IMG/VR virus record: IMGVR_UViG_2778261571_000006
DNA from: a virus
Lineage: Duplodnaviria > Heunggongvirae > Uroviricota > Caudoviricetes
DNA length: 6,249 bases
Strand: one strand, 5' to 3'
Below are positions 1 through 6,249 of this stretch, piece by piece. How positions within the stretch are numbered: the stretch's first letter is position 1; every line of letters begins with the position of its first letter. A program made the position numbers and the translations under genes. The notes under the pieces are model-generated. The model had not been told where the DNA came from, made no database searches, and saw nothing but the letters and a program-made list of their open reading frames with translations.

Positions 1-38
1 ATTTGAAAACAAGAACCTCGCTTAGGCCTGTGTCCATA

Positions 39-308
39 TTACGTGGGTAGGATCACATCACGCAGAACATCATTTTCAGCTTTCGCATCAGCTAACTCCT
101 TCGTGTATTTTGCATCGAGCGCAGCAACATCACGCTGACGCATCTGCATGTCAGTAATTGCCGCGTTCGCCAGCTTCAGTTCTCTGGCATTTTTGTCGCG
201 CTGTTCTTTGTAGGCGATGGCGTTATCACGGTAATGATTAACACCCCATGACAGGCAGACGACGATGCAGATAACCAGAGCGGAGATAATCGCGGTTACT
301 CTGTTCAT
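39..308 (-). pseudogene. Rz-like i-spanin, C-terminally truncated (about 89 aa instead of about 150)
   Basis: ORF 39..320(-). The likely true start is the ATG at 306-308, which overlaps the endolysin TGA stop (ATGA). The N-terminal hydrophobic segment ([19 protein letters not shown]) and [30 protein letters not shown] core match lambdoid Rz as I recall it. The reading frame ends abruptly (…[12 protein letters not shown]), where canonical Rz continues about 60 more residues. Confidence 0.6.
53..88 (-). pseudogene. Rz1 o-spanin remnant (first 11 codons only, embedded in Rz in the +1 frame)
   Basis: Hand translation of the minus strand from the ATG at 86-88 gives [11 protein letters not shown] followed by TGA. 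This matches the start of the lambdoid Rz1 signal peptide but stops before the lipobox. The break coincides with the Rz truncation point. Confidence 0.45.
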
Positions 309-667: not shown

Positions 668-758
668 TAGACTGGCCCCCTGAATCTCCAGACAACCAGT
701 ATCACTTAAATAAGTGATAGTCTTAATACTAGTTTTTAGACTAGTCATTGGAGAACAG

Positions 759-1124
759 ATGATTGATGTCTTAGGGCCGGAGAAACGCAGACGGCGTACC
801 ACACAGGAAAAGATCGCAATTGTTCAGCAGAGCTTTGAACCGGGGATGACGGTCTCCCTCGTTGCCCGGCAACATGGTGTAGCAGCCAGCCAGTTATTTC
901 TCTGGCGTAAGCAATACCAGGAAGGAAGTCTTACTGCTGTCGCCGCCGGAGAACAGGTTGTTCCTGCCTCTGAACTTGCTGCCGCCATGAAGCAGATTAA
1001 AGAACTCCAGCGCCTGCTCGGCAAGAAAACGATGGAAAATGAACTCCTCAAAGAAGCCGTTGAATATGGACGGGCAAAAAAGTGGATAGCGCACGCGCCC
1101 TTATTGCCCGGGGATGGGGAGTAA
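759..1124 (+). CDS. insC: IS2 OrfA (InsC), transposase N-terminal DNA-binding component
   Basis: ORF 714..1124(+); the likely true start is the ATG at 759 ([40 protein letters not shown]…), which is preceded by GGAGAACAG. Helix-turn-helix-like N-terminus. 121 aa. Confidence 0.9.
1076..1082 (+). other. Programmed -1 ribosomal frameshift site (A AAA AAG) joining OrfA and OrfB
   Basis: The heptamer A_AAA_AAG sits in the OrfA zero frame (GCA AAA AAG). A -1 slip continues into the OrfB frame (…K K V D S A R A L…). This is the standard IS3-family arrangement. Confidence 0.7.
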
Positions 1125-1987
1125 GCTTAGTCAGCCGTTGTCTCCGGGTGTCGCGTGCGCAGTTGCACTTCATTCTCAGACGAACCGATGACTGGATGGA
1201 TGGCCGCCGCAGTCGTCACACTGATGATACGGATGTGCTTCTCCGTATACACCATGTTATCGGAGAGCTGCCCACGTATGGTTATCGTCGGGTATGGGCG
1301 CAGCTTCGCAGACAGGCAGAACTTGATGGTATGCCTGCGATCAATGCCAAACGTGTTTACCGGATCATGCGCCAGAATGCGCTGTTGCTTGAGCGAAAAC
1401 CTGCTGTACCGCCATCGAAACGGGCACATACAGGCAGAGTGGCCGTGAAAGAAAGCAATCAGCGATGGTGCTCTGACGGGTTCGAGTTCTGCTGTGATAA
1501 CGGAGAGAGACTGCGTGTCACGTTCGCGCTGGACTGCTGTGATCGTGAGGCACTGCACTGGGCGGTGACTACCGGCGGCTTCAACAGTGAAACAGTACAG
1601 GACGTCATGCTGGGAGCGGTGGAACGCCGCTTCGGCAACGATCTTCCGTCGTCTCCAGTGGAGTGGCTGACGGATAATGGTTCATGCTACCGGGCTAATG
1701 AAACACGCCAGTTCGCCCGGATGTTGGGACTTGAACCGAAGAACACGGCGGTGCGGAGTCCGGAGAGTAACGGAATAGCAGAGAGCTTCGTGAAAACGAT
1801 AAAGCGTGACTACATCAGTATCATGCCCAAACCAGACGGGTTAACGGCAGCAAAGAACCTTGCAGAGGCGTTCGAGCATTATAACGAATGGCATCCGCAT
1901 AGTGCGCTGGGTTATCGCTCGCCACGGGAATATCTGCGGCAGCGGGCTTGTAATGGGTTAAGTGATAACAGATGTCTGGAAATATAG
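1082..1987 (+). CDS. insD: IS2 OrfB (InsD), DDE transposase catalytic component, expressed mainly as an OrfAB fusion
   Basis: ORF 1082..1987(+), 301 aa, GTG-initiated in the track ([13 protein letters not shown]…). Contains integrase-core-like motifs (…WCSDGFEF…, …[11 protein letters not shown]…, …ESNGIAESF…). Overlaps OrfA in the -1 frame. Confidence 0.9.
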
Positions 1988-1998
1988 GGGCAAATCCA

Positions 1999-2003: not shown

Positions 2004-2138
2004 AATATCTTTGTATGGTATGTAGCTGACACCTTCCAGACCATCGTTACCACTTGGGCCAGTGATTAACACTGATGCTATAGCAATTGCTCCGCCACCA
2101 ATAGCAGCAGCAACGGCTTTTCGTAATGATGGAGGCAT
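1999..2138 (-). pseudogene. SAR endolysin (phage 21 R-type), 5' portion upstream of the IS2 insertion
   Basis: ORF 1821..2138(-). The N-terminus [47 protein letters not shown] is a Gly/Ala-rich signal-arrest-release segment. The start ATG at 2136-2138 overlaps the holin stop (TAATG). Removing IS2 and one TSD copy rejoins this to 305..667 in frame: 140 + 363 - 5 = 498 nt, i.e. 165 codons plus stop. Confidence 0.9.
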
Positions 2139-2353
2139 TATTCACCTCTCGCAGCCTTGCGCTTATCTTCTTTAATCTTGAAATAAAGGTTTGTCAGGTA
2201 CGTCAGCAGGCCAAATACCAGACTACCCAGCACACCGATTGCAGCCCACTGTGACGGAGTTACTCTATCGAGCAACTGTAAAAACCAGTAGCCAGCACTG
2301 CCTGCGGAGGTGCCGTAGGCAATGCCTGTTGAAATTTTGTCCATGGATTTCAT
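2138..2353 (-). CDS. Pinholin (phage 21 S-type class II holin) with dual start Met1/Met4
   Basis: ORF 2138..2410(-). The likely true start is the ATG at 2351-2353, preceded by GGAGGTGAGGCT, giving [26 protein letters not shown]…[12 protein letters not shown] (71 aa). Two transmembrane segments and a charged C-terminus. Met1-Lys-Ser-Met4 matches the antiholin/holin dual-start motif. Confidence 0.85.
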
Positions 2354-2453
2354 AGCCTCACCTCCGCACGGAACGGATGGCATAGTTATTATGTGTAGGC
2401 TTTCAGACACATCAATCAGAGCCTTAATTGATATATATGCTGGAGACGATGCA

Positions 2454-2479
2454 ATATAAAAAGCTCGCCGTAGCGAGCT
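2454..2479 (-). terminator. Candidate intrinsic terminator (minus strand) between the lipoprotein genes and the holin
   Basis: 7-bp GC-containing stem AGCTCGC / GCGAGCT (2462-2468 and 2473-2479) with loop CGTA, followed on the minus strand by TTTTATATT. The T-run is short and interrupted. Confidence 0.4.
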
Positions 2480-2604: not shown

Positions 2605-3000
2605 CTAACCTCGCATGTCAAAGCCAGATTTCTGAAAATCTCTGTAGACTTCCGGATTGTTGAAGGCCGGAAATTTGGCTTTATGAGCTGCGGACTTTAT
2701 CGCTTCGCAATAGGCTTTATCACCGTTACTGGTAGATATTTTTAACGCCGTGCCATCCTGAGAGAATTCCATATGCAACCTGCATTTTTTCCCTTTCCAG
2801 TTATGCGGCTCATCAAGTTTGGCATTAATTGCAGCTCTGATTCCCCGCGCTTGCGCCCCCCATTCATCCTGATCATCCCAGCGTCCTGAACTGCAACTAC
2901 CTGTAGCAGTAGTTTTGTGGCAATCTGAAGGGTGTAAAGGTGTGCATCCCGCAACAAAACCGACCCAAAAAGTCAACATAACGATTTTCTTTAATCCCAC
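2605..3000 (-). CDS. Outer-membrane lipoprotein with a divergent TolA domain III-like C-terminal domain
   Basis: ORF 2605..3000(-), 131 aa, GTG start preceded by GAGGAG at 6-nt spacing. Signal peptide MGLKKIVMLTFWVGFVAGC with lipobox VAG-C and Thr at +2. The C-terminal region (…KGKKCRLHMEFSQDGTALKISTSNGDKAYCEAIKSAAHKAKFPAFNNPEVYRDFQ…) has the same Cys, Gly-Asp and PEVY..F spacing as the neighbouring paralog and TolA. Confidence 0.7.
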   Translation of the reverse strand: MGLKKIVMLTFWVGFVAGCTPLHPSDCHKTTATGSCSSGRWDDQDEWGAQARGIRAAINAKLDEPHNWKGKKCRLHMEFSQDGTALKISTSNGDKAYCEAIKSAAHKAKFPAFNNPEVYRDFQKSGFDMRG

Positions 3001-3150
3001 TTCTTGCTCCTCAATCCATTAAAATCTCAGCAATAGTAGTTGTTACGTCCGCCACTGGCTCAGAGCTGACTATCCGCTAAATTTAGCTCAGTGCCGTAGC
3101 TGTGTCAGAACAAACCTAAGCCGAAACCGTTTATTACAAAACAATAAATA

Positions 3151-3579
3151 TCAGGGTTTAAAATCCAGCACCCCATTTTGAAATACTTTATATACTTCCG
3201 GCGAAGGGGGGGCAGGTATATCAGCATTCTTTATCGCATTCATCGCTTCACGACATAAATCGAGGTCTCCACTTTCTCTTTTAACCTCCAGTAGAAGGCC
3301 ATTCGGGGCCATATGCATTCTCAGTGTACACTCTTTTCCTGAATACTTACTCGCATCCCCGAACTGTTTTTCGATGGCGCTCTTGATTTGATGGGCATAC
3401 AGACGGATATCCTCACTAACATCAGAAGTACGTTCAGATGAACTCACATACTGTGTCTCTATTGCTTTATCGGAGTAATATGATGTACGGTCATGATAAT
3501 TTGTCGATACAGCATCAGTGCACCCGATAATAATCCCACTAATAATCAACGTAAGAATTGATGCGCTACGAAAACCCAT
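3151..3579 (-). CDS. Outer-membrane lipoprotein with a TolA domain III-like C-terminal domain
   Basis: ORF 3151..3579(-), 142 aa, ATG preceded by GAGGAAAA. Signal peptide MGFRSASILTLIISGIIIGC with lipobox IIG-C and Thr at +2, then a Ser/Thr-rich linker. The C-terminal about 85 residues (IRLYAHQIKSAIEKQFGDASKYSGKECTLRMHMAPNGLLLEVKRESGDLDLCREAMNAIKNADIPAPPSPEVYKVFQNGVLDFKP) align closely with the E. coli TolA C-terminus as I recall it (…QIKSAIESKFYDASSYAGKTCTLRIKLAPDGMLLDIKPEGGDPALCQAALAAAKLAKIPKPPSQAVYEVFKNAPLDFKP). Confidence 0.8.
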   Translation of the reverse strand: MGFRSASILTLIISGIIIGCTDAVSTNYHDRTSYYSDKAIETQYVSSSERTSDVSEDIRLYAHQIKSAIEKQFGDASKYSGKECTLRMHMAPNGLLLEVKRESGDLDLCREAMNAIKNADIPAPPSPEVYKVFQNGVLDFKP

Positions 3580-3608
3580 TTTTCCTCACATATGTCATAT
3601 AGTAAAGG

Positions 3609-3638
3609 ATTATATATACCGTTGTTTTGGACGCTCAA
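3609..3638 (-). promoter_or_regulatory. Candidate sigma70 promoter for the lipoprotein pair
   Basis: On the minus strand, TTGAGC (-35-like, 3633-3638) and TATAAT (3609-3614) are separated by 18 nt, about 30 nt upstream of the 3579 start codon. Found by eye only. Confidence 0.3.
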
Positions 3639-3696
3639 ACAGCGAATCAGATCAAATAAAACGCACATTTGTTAACATTTACACAAAGTCTGCGTG

Positions 3697-3717
3697 GGAT
3701 ATTCTGAAAGAATATCC
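3697..3717. promoter_or_regulatory. Perfect 21-bp palindrome GGATATTCT-GAA-AGAATATCC (candidate operator)
   Basis: 9-bp arms with a 3-bp spacer, about 60-100 bp upstream of the candidate lipoprotein promoter. No adjacent T-run on either strand, so it is not terminator-like. Confidence 0.35.
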
Positions 3718-4170
3718 ATAATGTGGAGAGAATCTATTGAAGTGCATGGTGCCGGGTGCCTCCCGGTGAACAAAATGTTCGTGATACCTGTCGGCGACAG
3801 AAAAGGTTAATGGTATCACCCCACCGCACAGGGGGATTCACCATGCAGGAGTTTTCTTAGCAAACTCACTGCGCGCCCGGCAACTCCCAACCACATAAAA
3901 TGCGGAGTTTGTGGTATTTATGCATATAACTCGCAGGAATTATCTTAAAAAACTGATGTCGATCCGGATTAAAAAGAAGCAGGTCATCATCAGATGACTG
4001 GAAAAAAGGAAAACAAAAAATACTCATCATACAGTTTTGATTGCAGGGATGAGCCTGCTATGCACAATATGCAGAATATAAGCAAGATAAAAATATGCAG
4101 GCATATTATTTCGGATTTTGTTATTAACACAACCTTTTTAATAATCATTTGGCATACAATAAACCAGCCC

Positions 4171-4196
4171 AAAAAGAACCGCCTAAACAGGCGGTT
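4171..4196 (-). terminator. Intrinsic terminator (minus strand) in the late-leader region
   Basis: 8-bp stem AACCGCCT / AGGCGGTT (4177-4184 and 4189-4196) with loop AAAC, followed on the minus strand by CTTTTTGGG. Confidence 0.5.
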
Positions 4197-4440
4197 GGTC
4201 AATACAAAGGATGCTTCGTCTTTATTATAGTAATCTGAGGCGTCGGGTGTCTTGTATCAGACAACATATTGTCCCGCTAAACAGCGAATTACAAACCACC
4301 CTGCAATGATCTCTCATCTCATTTTATATGAGTTGACGACATCAGGATAACGCATCATCAGCCCCTGCCAAGAAATATCAAAACTCCCGCCAGCAATGTG
4401 TTATCACAATATTGTAAAAAAAACACAGCACCGAAACTAT

Positions 4441-4479
4441 AACTGGTCTCTGTTATAATTTGGAGCAGAAAGACCAGTT
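4441..4479. repeat. 9-bp inverted repeat (AACTGGTCT … AGACCAGTT) enclosing a TATAAT hexamer
   Basis: Arms at 4441-4449 and 4471-4479; the 21-nt spacer contains TATAAT at 4454-4459. Confidence 0.3.
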
Positions 4480-4516
4480 GCCCAACTAGCAGCATTCTCC
4501 CCTGCTTTCCTGACGT

Positions 4517-4543
4517 AAAAAAACCGCATTAAGCGGTTTTTTT
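4517..4543. terminator. Bidirectional intrinsic terminator just downstream of the Q-like gene (tR'-like position)
   Basis: AAAAAAACCGC-ATTAA-GCGGTTTTTTT: a GC stem flanked by a 7-A run and a 7-T run, so it is U-tailed on both strands. It lies about 80-105 nt downstream of the stop at 4624 on the minus strand. Confidence 0.6.
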
Positions 4544-4623
4544 ACGATGTCCATGTCTGCAATCCGCCTCGCGATACAGCTTTGCGAAGCATAGCAAAAT
4601 TGAAGCAGTTTATACGTAAGAAA

Positions 4624-5166
4624 TCAAGCCATTTTCTCAGCAAATGATTCACGCATGGGAATATATAGGGCATACTCAGCAACAGCTAACCAATTAGCAA
4701 TCCGTTTTTCGCATGTGCTAAAACACCACTCTGGGTGTGCATCATTTAGCAATTCAGCCATTTTGCGCTTAGTCATCCCCCGCCCTTCATAGCGTTGCCG
4801 GAGAATGCAAATCAATCCTGGATGCTCTGCCAGCACCTCACTTATGACTCGATCAATACATAACGCCTCTGCATCAGTACAATGCGCCAGCCAGCTCTTT
4901 TGCTTGCCGTTGATCATCTCTCGCAAAAACGCTTCCAGCTCAGCTTTCTCTATTCCCGCTTTTTTCATTCTGCGCAGGGCTTCATTAATGGCTGTTTTCG
5001 TCAGTTTTTTGGATGCCAACAACTGATTGAACATATTCCCTGACCTGCCACCGCCAATATACGACCAGCGCCCCCACATACGTAGTTTTCCCTGAATCCA
5101 GACACTTTCCAGCGTGGTGAGGCGAAGGTGTTCTCCGCTTTTTCCTGTATTCGTTGGGTAAATCAT
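4624..5166 (-). CDS. Candidate late-gene antiterminator (Q-like, phage 82/21-type); family assignment uncertain
   Basis: ORF 4624..5166(-), 180 aa, ATGA-overlapped with the upstream gene. It is the last gene before the terminator and leader region that precedes the lysis genes, which is where Q sits in lambdoid phages. It has an RMWGRW motif reminiscent of the ERWGAW motif I recall in Q82-family antiterminators, and several Cys residues. Confidence 0.5.
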   Translation of the reverse strand: MIYPTNTGKSGEHLRLTTLESVWIQGKLRMWGRWSYIGGGRSGNMFNQLLASKKLTKTAINEALRRMKKAGIEKAELEAFLREMINGKQKSWLAHCTDAEALCIDRVISEVLAEHPGLICILRQRYEGRGMTKRKMAELLNDAHPEWCFSTCEKRIANWLAVAEYALYIPMRESFAEKMA

Positions 5167-5453
5167 AAATGACCTTTCTTTCTCCAGATTTCTTGTGTGC
5201 GAAAAACCCCTTCAGCATGCATCAGGCGCAATTCTTCTTTGGTGTAATCGCTGGTTTTTACCCGCCCGTCGATTAGATCGTGGCATGAGCTACAGGCTAT
5301 CGCCGCCTGCATATCGTGTGGTTTTGTCGCTGTTCCGCACGTCCCCGCCAGCCTGTAATGCGCCAGCACAGAGGTTTCGGGATTGTGATTGCAGTAGCCA
5401 GGGATTCTGATCTGGCACATCTGGCCTTTAGCCGCTTTACGTAAATTCACCAT
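5163..5453 (-). CDS. YbcO-like DUF1364 protein (Cys/His-rich, putative metal-binding nuclease of the nin region)
   Basis: ORF 5163..5453(-), 96 aa: MVNLRKAAKGQMCQIRIPGYCNHNPETSVLAHYRLAGTCGTATKPHD…ACSSCHDLID. This resembles the cryptic-prophage YbcO protein as I recall it (same length, conserved CQ.RIPG.CN.NPETSVLAH motif). Confidence 0.7.
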   Translation of the reverse strand: MVNLRKAAKGQMCQIRIPGYCNHNPETSVLAHYRLAGTCGTATKPHDMQAAIACSSCHDLIDGRVKTSDYTKEELRLMHAEGVFRTQEIWRKKGHL

Positions 5454-6052
5454 TACGCAAACTCCAGTAGTTGTGCGGCCACATTTTCAACTTCCTCCTG
5501 AGAGGAGAATTTACGGAACAGAATCCAGTTCCACAGCACATTCAGTACAGATTTATAAACCTGCTGAAACTCGACTTCGTCCATATTCGCAAAAGCGATG
5601 GATTTTGCCCGACGCCCACGGCTACCGTCCGGATAAATATGCTCGGTGTAAAATCCGGCCTGAATGGTTACCCACTCGCGGAAAGCCTCAAACGACTTTA
5701 GCAACGCCGTATCCCGGGTTCTACGAGTCGCAACGGTGTTAAGGTATTGCTCTGCGGCATCACTCAGGGCTGGCGTGTGTTCCCGACCAACTGATTCGCA
5801 CAGGTAATCAACGAAACCAGACAGCAGTTCTCGTTCGCGAGGCGTGATCGCCCCACCGACCGGAGTCCAGTAATCGAATCCCAGTTGCAGGAGTTTGAAA
5901 AAACGCTTGTGGAATGCGTAGTTACGCACACGCTTAAAGTCTGCGTGTATCCACTCACCTATTTTGATTTGATGCAGAAAATCGCAACTCTCCGGCGTCG
6001 CCGGGAGAAGTAAACCAGAAGAAGTTTGTTTGACCAGTTGTATATGCGCCAT
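5453..6052 (-). CDS. Phage nin-region protein of unknown function (possibly DUF1367 family)
   Basis: ORF 5453..6052(-), 199 aa. Its stop overlaps the start of the downstream DUF1364 gene, consistent with translational coupling. Long uninterrupted frame with codon usage matching its neighbours. The family name is from memory and is not verified. Confidence 0.6.
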   Translation of the reverse strand: MAHIQLVKQTSSGLLLPATPESCDFLHQIKIGEWIHADFKRVRNYAFHKRFFKLLQLGFDYWTPVGGAITPRERELLSGFVDYLCESVGREHTPALSDAAEQYLNTVATRRTRDTALLKSFEAFREWVTIQAGFYTEHIYPDGSRGRRAKSIAFANMDEVEFQQVYKSVLNVLWNWILFRKFSSQEEVENVAAQLLEFA

Positions 6053-6194: not shown

Positions 6195-6249
6195 GGTAAT
6201 GACTCCAACTTATTGATAGTGTTTTATGTTCAGATAATGCCCGATGACT
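6195..6249 (-). mobile_element. IS1 end (terminal inverted repeat), element continues beyond the window
   Basis: GGTAATGACTCCAACTTATTGATAGTGTTTTATGTTCAGATAATGCCCGATGAC matches the IS1 terminus including the InsB 3' end. Only this end is visible. Confidence 0.85.
6210..6249 (-). CDS. insB: IS1 transposase InsB, C-terminal codons only (partial at window edge)
   Basis: The minus strand reads …VIGHYLNIKHYQ* with the TAA stop at 6210-6212, which is the InsB C-terminus as I recall it. Confidence 0.7.
   Translation of the reverse strand, partial: VIGHYLNIKHYQ

Follow-up and report, generated by a model that had tools for sequence, protein, structure and literature searches.

The stretch of DNA analysed here, 6,249 nucleotides of the IMG/VR virus record IMGVR_UViG_2778261571_000006 (the window), reads on its minus strand as the late-gene region of a lambdoid prophage, as judged from open reading frame (ORF) calling and Pfam. 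Two adjoining genes in this region, which we call A and B, each encode a predicted lipoprotein with a domain of the TolA domain III (TolA III) type. The gene order is a Q-type antiterminator gene, a gap of about 1 kb, A, B, a terminator and a P21-type holin gene, beyond which lie a lysozyme gene and then Rz (Table 1). A preliminary description of this DNA had placed the two genes between the antiterminator and the lysis genes, in the slot where lambdoid phages carry cargo, and the positions of the Q and holin genes bear this out.

Architecture of the A and B proteins

Both proteins match the Pfam family TolA_C (PF06519, gathering score 25), A with 82.6 bits (2.4e-23, profile positions 4-96 of 96) and B with 54.6 bits (1.3e-14). 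Against the TolA III chains in the PDB, A was found at about 5e-28 and aligned without gaps to residues 334-421 of E. coli TolA, with 52 of 88 positions identical (59%); B is 34% identical to the same domain. AlphaFold2 models gave a predicted local distance difference test (pLDDT) score above 90 for both domains and a disordered N-terminal part in each protein. The top Foldseek matches of the models were E. coli TolA III structures, 2x9a (chain B) for A, with a template modelling score (TM) of 0.96 and a root-mean-square deviation (rmsd) of 0.6 A, and 3qdp for B (TM 0.92, rmsd 1.2 A), and TonB C-terminal domains matched only weakly. Both cysteines of the conserved TolA disulfide pair (C363/C388) are present in A, in B and in the two Klebsiella plasmid lineages described below. 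The TolA III-like domain proposed in the preliminary description is thus confirmed by profile, alignment and model.

Lipoproteins were called using a pattern rule, [LVI][ASTVI][GAS]C, together with conservation of the lipobox in homologues. The N-terminus of A (MGFRSASILTLIISGIIIG followed by C-T-D) has a positive n-region, a hydrophobic core and a lipobox, and the same three parts are found in B (MGLKKIVMLTFWVGFVAG followed by C-T-P). A starts with ATG, with GAGG 5 nt upstream, and B starts with GTG; relatives of B have GTG or ATG in the same alignment column, behind the same Shine-Dalgarno sequence. The lipobox is present in 154 of 166 retrieved homologues, and those inspected among the other 12 were truncated or mis-started. 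The residue at +2 is A, T, S, C, G or V among these homologues, never D, and is Thr in both A and B; in other lineages it is K, S, H, V, M, Q or N. The signal peptides with IIGC and VAGC, Thr at +2 and no Asp were therefore read correctly at the outset. Since Asp is missing at +2, A and B should reach the outer membrane by the E. coli +2 rule, and an outer-membrane location is predicted for both.

The two proteins differ in what joins the lipid-bearing Cys to the domain, a 36-residue disordered linker in A and a conserved, Cys-containing 26-residue segment in B. Residues 20-44 of B are nearly invariant from E. coli to Serratia and were modelled with only low to medium confidence; the alignments suggest a constraint that far exceeds the needs of a tether. 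Mimicry of the TolB box of colicins by this part of B (residues 34-48) was considered and ruled out. The core of that box is DG(S/T)GWSSE, with D, S/T, W and E essential (PMC2821528), and B has SSGRWDDQ at the aligned position, where Trp alone matches.

A and B are genuine TolA III domain proteins, yet neither is TolA. Both fall below the cut-off of the TolA equivalog model PRK09510 (107.8 and 53.7 bits for A and B, cut-off 213). With TIGR02794 (cut-off 59.45), B is again below at 47.2 bits, and the 75.6 bits of A cover only positions 265-362 of 362. Neither protein has the N-terminal transmembrane domain I or the long helical domain II, 26-36 residues leading from the Cys to the domain, and both genes lie outside the tol-pal operon, with relatives on plasmids and at scattered chromosomal loci. 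Having no helix for coupling to TolQR, only a short linker and no place in the tol-pal operon, they cannot transduce energy.

The passage of A over the TIGR02794 cut-off by its C-terminal third alone probably explains the label that RefSeq gives it. In strain HS30-1 (NZ_CP029492.1), RefSeq/PGAP lists A as a tolA pseudogene ('incomplete; missing N-terminus') at 12752-13012 of the retrieved stretch, which corresponds to window positions 3151-3411, and in other genomes the gene is annotated 'cell envelope integrity protein TolA'. These labels hide an intact and conserved lipoprotein gene.

Table 1. Features of the A-B locus and two related plasmid loci. Positions refer to the window unless an accession is given.
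Feature	Position	Strand	Basis or remark
Gene A, predicted 142-amino-acid (aa) lipoprotein	3151..3579 (stop codon 3151-3153)	-	ORF, Pfam TolA_C, model, Foldseek
A predicted signal peptide and lipobox, codons 1-20, ending IIG before C20; +2 Thr, +3 Asp	3520..3579	-	Sequence; kept in A-family homologues
A TolA III domain, residues 55-142	3154..3417	-	PDB alignment, interface table, pLDDT >90
Sigma-70 promoter-like site TTGAGC-18-TATAAT, ending 30 nt upstream of A start	3609..3638	-	10/12 consensus match
Gene B, predicted 131-aa lipoprotein	2605..3000 (stop codon 2605-2607)	-	ORF, Pfam TolA_C, 370 homologue clusters, model, dN/dS
B Shine-Dalgarno sequence GAGGAG, 7 nt before GTG	3007..3012	-	Aligns with Shine-Dalgarno sequences and start codons of homologues
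B predicted signal peptide and lipobox, codons 1-19, ending VAG before C19; +2 Thr	2944..3000	-	Kept across genera
B residues 20-44 (TPLHPSDCHKTTATGSCSSGRWDDQ), two extra Cys	2869..2943	-	Alignments, purifying selection
B TolA III domain, residues 45-131	2608..2868	-	Disulfide Cys pair kept; beta3 edge GFDMRG (Asp and basic residue retained)
Intrinsic terminator (AGCTCGCTACGGCGAGCT, then T-run)	2452..2479 (also given as 2479-2462)	-	Between B and holin gene
P21-type holin gene (essD), first gene of lysis cassette	2138-2353	-	Pfam Phage_holin_2_1 119.9 bits; RefSeq annotation of intact copy
DUF1133/Q-type antiterminator gene	4624-5166	-	Pfam DUF1133 356 bits, Phage_antitermQ 26.1 bits
YbcO/DUF1364 gene	5163-5453	-	Second gene in minus-strand reading order
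DUF1367 gene	5453-6052	-	First gene in minus-strand reading order
Insertion sequence (IS) end	1-55		Cuts Rz
Complete IS2, 5-bp CCAAC target duplication	668-1998		Splits lysozyme gene
IS1 end	6195-6249		Upstream of DUF1367 gene
B-type gene (88% identical) on pO157-type plasmid pTA112 (E. coli O157:H7 type)	NZ_CP028684.1, 6965-7396	+	Between hok and toxB
TolA III lipoprotein (123 aa) and adjacent TonB C-terminal domain with signal peptide (121 aa), pKP2509-5	NZ_CP065951.1, 7818-8551	-	Lone plasmid fully read

Selection, distribution and the state of the prophage

Ratios of nonsynonymous to synonymous substitution (dN/dS) indicate that A and B are functional genes. Comparisons of prophage, plasmid and chromosomal copies of B gave values of 0.03-0.13 for most pairs (maximum 0.21), with dS reaching 0.45-1.08, and the purifying selection includes the 26-residue segment between the lipid-bearing Cys and the domain. 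For A and a 66%-identical relative of the same architecture, the domain had a dN/dS of 0.24 and the linker, as expected of a tether, one of 0.59. B appears to be the older and much more constrained lineage and A a recognisable capture of an enterobacterial TolA III.

Among 5,426 complete E. coli genomes, 898 carry A and 1,269 carry B, about 780 having both at 99% identity or more. A and B share 29-31% identity and each is found alone, which rules out a recent tandem duplication. We retrieved 80 viral or proviral contigs, 35 of which carry the pair; the 29 of these that reach the lysis genes all show the order Q, A, B, holin, lysozyme, Rz. The antiterminators that precede the pair are of two unrelated types and the lysozymes that follow it differ, indicating that it moves as a mosaic module. 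An A-type gene of 65-68% identity also occurs alone in the Q-to-holin slot, beside AraC-type and NanS-p genes. Isolated phages hardly contribute to this distribution, with A/B genes in one of 50,697 genomes (mEp460_ev081).

B is found on plasmids as well as in prophages. B-type genes of about 88% protein identity are present on about 600 E. coli and Shigella plasmids, pO157 included. Genomic contexts were sampled by hand, about 15 in all. On pO157-type IncF plasmids the leading region runs ssb, psiB, psiA, hok, the B-type gene and toxB, and on a Shigella sonnei IncK2/Z plasmid the B-type gene directly follows the relaxase gene. Solo copies of B with 79-89% protein identity are found on the chromosomes of Enterobacter, Citrobacter, Klebsiella and Serratia, at a locus that changes with the genus and that in the first three lies among housekeeping and stress genes; this combination of shifting loci and high identity points to horizontal spread and not to a core function. 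Further copies lie at decayed prophage edges beside umuDC and SRAP. Homology between B and its chromosomal copies is limited to the gene with about 190 bp 5' of the start and about 20 bp past the stop, suggesting that it travels as a compact cassette.

Two further lineages were found on Klebsiella plasmids. The first is a 123-aa protein with the lipobox LTAC, 49% identical to TolA III and ending in NAPLDFRP. It is present at 99% identity or more on 379 plasmids, most of the sampled ones being 10-12 kb in size, and an adjacent gene of the TonB family is listed in 20 of 21 sampled plasmids. The plasmid pKP2509-5 (Table 1) encodes a cloacin DF13-type bacteriocin. CloDF13 itself has no gene with a TolA domain, and published comparisons name the gene only 'TolA'. 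The second lineage (144 aa, lipobox ITAC) has about 300 plasmid matches at 60-80% identity, mostly on large plasmids among those sampled; on the two IncFII/IncR plasmids examined it adjoins a gene for a thioredoxin-fold protein and lies near Abi or near an ATPase and UvrD. The candidate defence neighbours on these Klebsiella plasmids are an Abi family protein and an ATP-binding protein with a UvrD helicase (832-1833 and 1-2364 of the two retrieved stretches), the latter pair perhaps Gabija-like. The Serratia copy of B adjoins genes for GmrSD (GmrSD_N) and HEPN proteins (6957-8736 of the retrieved stretch). An exhaustive profile search returned 577 relatives, and 58 of the 148 new representatives in its top list are short proteins with a lipobox and TolA III. 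Those with a named organism are all from Enterobacterales, and by sequence 95-97% of the 58 have the disulfide Cys pair.

The A+B pair is therefore neither one system nor specific to phages, and its members belong to independent lineages. The two genes do adjoin in the window, as the preliminary description had it; its picture of a tandem phage system does not hold for the family, given the 31% identity, the occurrence of each gene alone elsewhere and the mainly plasmid or solo chromosomal distribution of B.

The prophage is a decayed lambdoid one at the Rac site. In HS30-1 the window DNA occupies the Rac prophage site, adjoining ompN, uspF and trkG, and the only difference between the two copies lies in three IS elements, the remainder being 99.8-99.9% identical. 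The element that cuts Rz is one that we take to be IS3-like. With lysozyme and Rz both destroyed by insertions this copy cannot lyse; A and B are intact although the lysis cassette is dead. In the uninterrupted copy of HS30-1, Rz is complete (154 aa) and the Rz1 lipoprotein is embedded in it.

The slot that A and B occupy is lower in G+C than the DNA on either side; a terminator follows the insert, and the small RNA STnc100 is a neighbour. A terminator scan of the window found none between A and B; at the divergent A locus, too, terminators follow the gene. The promoter-like site in front of A (Table 1) is suggestive of a promoter of its own. It is the same in mEp460 and is not kept at divergent A-type loci, so that a conserved private promoter is unsupported beyond this single consensus match. 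STnc100 (Rfam) lies at 3690-3876 on the minus strand, about 110 nt upstream of A (86.6 bits, gathering score 47), and likewise precedes A in phage mEp460_ev081 (114 bits). A role as dedicated 5' leader of A was ruled out, since STnc100 is described as a generic small RNA of prophage late regions, found downstream of stx2 too, and is missing from the divergent A-type loci, which have two tRNA genes in its place. The window itself contains no tRNA genes.

The interval between Q and A (3580-4620) is about 1 kb of AT-rich DNA (G+C 0.36-0.45) with no supported gene. It contains two terminator-like hairpins (4196-4177 and 3998-3983) and small hydrophobic ORFs, such as one of 70 aa at 3990-4202 on the minus strand; the small ORFs of 3600-4600 gave zero PHROG matches. 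A strong hairpin with a T-run directly 3' of the Q gene (4510-4590, minus strand) resembles tR' of a short pR' transcript, and the Salmonella prophage small RNA IsrK overlaps it below threshold (21.6 bits, gathering score 50).

Possible roles of A and B

TolA serves as the import hub for group A colicins, TonB for those of group B. Host TolA is presented from the inner membrane, where its transmembrane helix couples domain III to the proton-driven TolQR motor, and group A colicins and bacteriocins, as well as g3p of pilus-specific filamentous phages, must bind TolA III directly or via TolB for entry. Two surfaces of the domain are engaged (PMC4339652, PMC3365938, PMC7391070). Strand beta3 (D418, K420) binds the TolB N-terminus, colicin N and g3p-N1 by strand addition (PMC4339652), and the opposite edge (L375-P380 with K368, K379 and K396) binds colicin A (PMC3365938). 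The beta3 edge is kept in all four mobile-element lineages (VLDFKP in A, PLDFRP and ALDFRL in Klebsiella, GFDMRG in B), and L417, D418 and F419 are conserved at 64-78% in the 58 diverse lipoprotein representatives, a comparison with TolA that is one-sided in that the filter kept only 2 full-length TolA comparators. The colicin A edge (LLEVKR, K396) is mostly kept in A alone among the four. Because B keeps only the beta3-type edge and A both surfaces, the two proteins probably differ in specificity.

In the explanation that we favour, and hold tentatively, A and B serve as decoys, uncoupled from the motor, against Tol-dependent colicins and filamentous phage. The analysis establishes domain identity, the lipobox, the missing TolA domains I and II, genomic contexts, selection and conserved residues; an outer-membrane location, ligand binding and protection are inferred. 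As accessory genes of the 'moron' type, A and B would display a free TolA III domain on the side of the outer membrane that faces the periplasm, held just under the membrane by the lipid anchor and a tether of 26-36 residues. This is where an incoming colicin translocation domain or g3p-N1 would first emerge, and its capture in a dead-end complex would leave the carrier cell tolerant. The affinity of TolA III is about 1 uM for parasite ligands and about 4-200 uM for TolB (PMC4339652, PMC7391070, PMC2707214), so that a decoy could favour invaders over TolB, and modest expression could intercept invaders without titrating TolB into envelope damage. The motor-uncoupled TolA mutant H22A does not support colicin uptake (PMC2707214), from which it would follow that an anchorless TolA III is non-productive by design.

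The module of TolA and TonB domains on bacteriocin plasmids is the strongest circumstantial support for a decoy. The pili of conjugative plasmids are the primary receptors of TolA-dependent filamentous phages, and placement of family members on such plasmids fits this explanation as well. Since A and B are intact where the lysis genes have been destroyed by IS elements, and the family is present where there are no lysis genes, their role would be independent of phage lysis. Three roles had been offered for the pair in the preliminary description, a decoy against Tol-dependent import, a modulator of Tol-Pal and a substitute for truncated spanins; the TonB pairing, the conjugative plasmids, the defence neighbours, the beta3 edge and the absence of all motor-coupling parts of TolA favour the decoy, and the spanin role falls with the finding that Rz was cut by an IS. 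It is also possible, though we would put it forward with reserve, that mobile elements have repeatedly captured TolA III and the TonB C-terminal domain as decoys, an 'import-hub mimicry' that would give general immunity to bacteriocins of groups A and B and to filamentous phages that are pilus-specific. TolA III would then act as an outer-membrane lipoprotein and the TonB C-terminal domain as a secreted periplasmic protein, both motor-uncoupled, and the carriers would be lambdoid prophages, IncF and IncI-complex plasmids, cloacin-type plasmids and small chromosomal islets of Enterobacterales.

Several observations weigh against a decoy role. Of the TolA contact residues, A shares 4 of 8 at the colicin A site and 5 of 7 on beta3, so that ligand-contact residues in A are not enriched above the 59% background identity, and many of the conserved positions are structural. 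B, at 34% identity to TolA III, is near-invariant including its non-TolA segment, a pattern that seems to fit a conserved host partner better than mimicry aimed at varied invaders. Placed just upstream of the holin gene and controlled by the Q-dependent late promoter, the genes would be expressed in a burst as the cell lyses, in keeping with a loosening of the envelope, and expression in the lysogen is conjectural, the promoter of A being only a consensus match that divergent loci do not conserve. PADLOC had no match for A or B and PHROG 5772 is listed as of function unknown, and by sequence the proteins fall into none of the described families of superinfection exclusion or defence (Cor, Llp, TraT, PADLOC systems). 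The defence-gene neighbourhoods are anecdotal, and a stoichiometric decoy may be insufficient against single-hit toxins.

A rival reading is that A and B loosen the envelope, which we consider unlikely overall but worth keeping in view. A tethered TolA III would bind the TolB N-terminus on TolB-Pal and block the mobilisation of Pal by TolA, giving a controlled tol-like state, leaky and vesiculating, that aids phage release, bacteriocin release or vesicle production. E. coli can be made to leak periplasmic protein with TolA III constructs placed in the periplasm (PMC6195910, citing Wan & Baneyx 1998), beta3 mutants of TolA deficient in TolB binding show a tol phenotype (PMC4339652), and the beta3 edge is common to all lineages. 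The phage genes stand directly upstream of the holin in a Q-dependent late operon (Q, A, B, holin in 35 of 80 loci), one lineage is on plasmids with a colicin lysis gene, and the extreme conservation of B fits a host partner such as TolB. However, a terminator stands between B and the holin gene, A and B are intact inside a lysis-dead prophage in the same form as in hundreds of genomes, and the family also occurs on chromosomes and plasmids that have no lysis function. A constitutive tol phenotype, with its sensitivity to sodium dodecyl sulfate and bile, would be costly for enteric bacteria, and strong expression would be needed because TolB binds TolA III weakly (4-200 uM). The TonB-domain partner on cloacin plasmids, moreover, has no evident role in loosening the outer membrane. 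That pairing is likewise left unexplained if B especially, and perhaps A, is a host-beneficial accessory factor of the envelope, an outer-membrane adaptor that binds TolB, CpoB, Pal or a peptidoglycan enzyme, tunes homeostasis of the envelope or stress resistance, has nothing to do with colicins or phage, and is carried by mobile elements as fitness cargo in the manner of Bor/Iss. The solo chromosomal copies of B, which in the three genera other than Serratia have housekeeping and stress genes around them, would suit such a factor, as would the very low dN/dS of B, its invariant non-TolA N-terminal segment and the 58 of 148 representatives that are short lipoproteins with TolA III, the named ones all from Enterobacterales. 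We judge it rather improbable, since the locus differs from genus to genus at 79-89% protein identity, the mark of horizontal spread, and only 23% of complete E. coli genomes carry B, which is not known from E. coli K-12.

Two other readings have next to no probability in our estimate. The view of A and B as a spanin-like lysis component of the outer membrane, which the preliminary description had raised as a substitute for the truncated spanins, took its appeal from predicted outer-membrane lipoproteins lying beside a cassette with a truncated Rz. It is contradicted by the IS end that made the truncation, an artefact of this copy, and by the full Rz and Rz1 of HS30-1; A coexists with a recognisable Rz in 18 of the 80 viral or proviral loci, the family is common at loci lacking lysis genes, and A and B, being globular proteins of the TolA III type, are unlike the short proline-rich o-spanins. 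Equally far-fetched is the idea that the ORFs are decaying debris of a captured host gene, for which the pseudogene flag given to A by PGAP and its match to TIGR02794 by the C-terminal third only could be cited. Selection and conservation contradict it: A is a complete ORF with its own Shine-Dalgarno sequence, start codon, signal peptide and lipobox, the 142-aa form is kept in hundreds of genomes, dN/dS in the domain is 0.24, and the same architecture recurs in four lineages.

Significance and comparison with known systems

The searchable literature holds no characterised system of this kind, as the preliminary description had supposed, and no characterised TolA-domain lipoprotein on a phage or plasmid. 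Mentions are at the level of annotation (PMC10269471, PMC6807383, PMC11125564): 'tolA' is listed on cloacin-family plasmids in plasmid genomics (PMC10269471, PMC6807383), and a prophage gene annotated as TolA, which may or may not be homologous to A or B, was induced 32-fold by ciprofloxacin (PMC11125564). The searched literature contained no functional study and no account of the lipoprotein architecture, the spread on mobile elements or the pairing with a TonB domain. The annotation of the domain and the dominant-negative principle of TolA III in the laboratory were known before; the proposal made here is that predicted outer-membrane lipoproteins of mobile elements use this principle.

If A and B are decoys, they would form a widespread and unrecognised layer of resistance against colicins, klebicins and filamentous phages, carried by prophages and plasmids and to be met with in 14-23% of complete E. 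coli genomes, as well as on pO157, a virulence plasmid, and on hundreds of Klebsiella plasmids. This would bear on why natural isolates are so often colicin-tolerant and on the design of antimicrobials based on bacteriocins or phages that enter through Tol or Ton. Mobile elements would be protecting their hosts, and conjugative plasmids would in addition be guarding against phages that exploit their own pili. If import-hub mimicry is real, about a quarter of E. coli genomes, pO157 and epidemic Klebsiella plasmids would contain a natural counterpart of the laboratory dominant-negatives. On the envelope-loosening reading, A and B would instead be regulators by which Tol-Pal, vesiculation and lysis are naturally controlled.

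The closest known relative is E. coli TolA III itself (about 314-421; 1TOL, 1S62, 2X9A, 3QDP/3QDR), of the same fold and family and with 59% identity to A and 34% to B. Both proteins share with it the disulfide cysteines and a beta3 edge that keeps D418 and, at position 420, a basic residue, and A also shares most of the colicin A strand. TolA differs in having an inner-membrane helix coupled to TolQR and a domain II of about 260 residues, in place of which A and B show a lipoprotein signal peptide and a linker of 26-36 residues. A free transducer domain acting as a dominant-negative is the principle that we propose for A and B, and it is known from laboratory periplasmic TolA III constructs and from periplasmic C-terminal fragments of TonB. 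Levengood-Freyermuth and colleagues reportedly found in 1993 that periplasmic TolA III makes cells colicin-tolerant and leaky. Those constructs are artificial, soluble and overexpressed, whereas A and B are natural, predicted to be lipid-anchored, under purifying selection and located on mobile elements.

Cor (phi80/N15), Llp (T5), TraT (F) and Bor/Iss (lambda) are small outer-membrane lipoproteins carried as accessory cargo and proposed to protect the carrier; Cor and Llp inactivate the outer-membrane receptor FhuA. Bor, like A and B, lies beside a lambdoid lysis cassette. None of these proteins is related in sequence to A or B, which would mimic a periplasmic import hub by means of a host domain. 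The lambdoid morons between Q and S, such as stx and nanS-p, occupy the same slot as A and B, and related prophages hold A alone with AraC and NanS-p; a slot that is differently filled (A+B, or A with AraC and NanS-p) and a terminator of its own are found here too. A and B differ from lambdoid morons in that their genes are also found on plasmids and as solo chromosomal genes, and in that the promoter proposed for A is a consensus match only.

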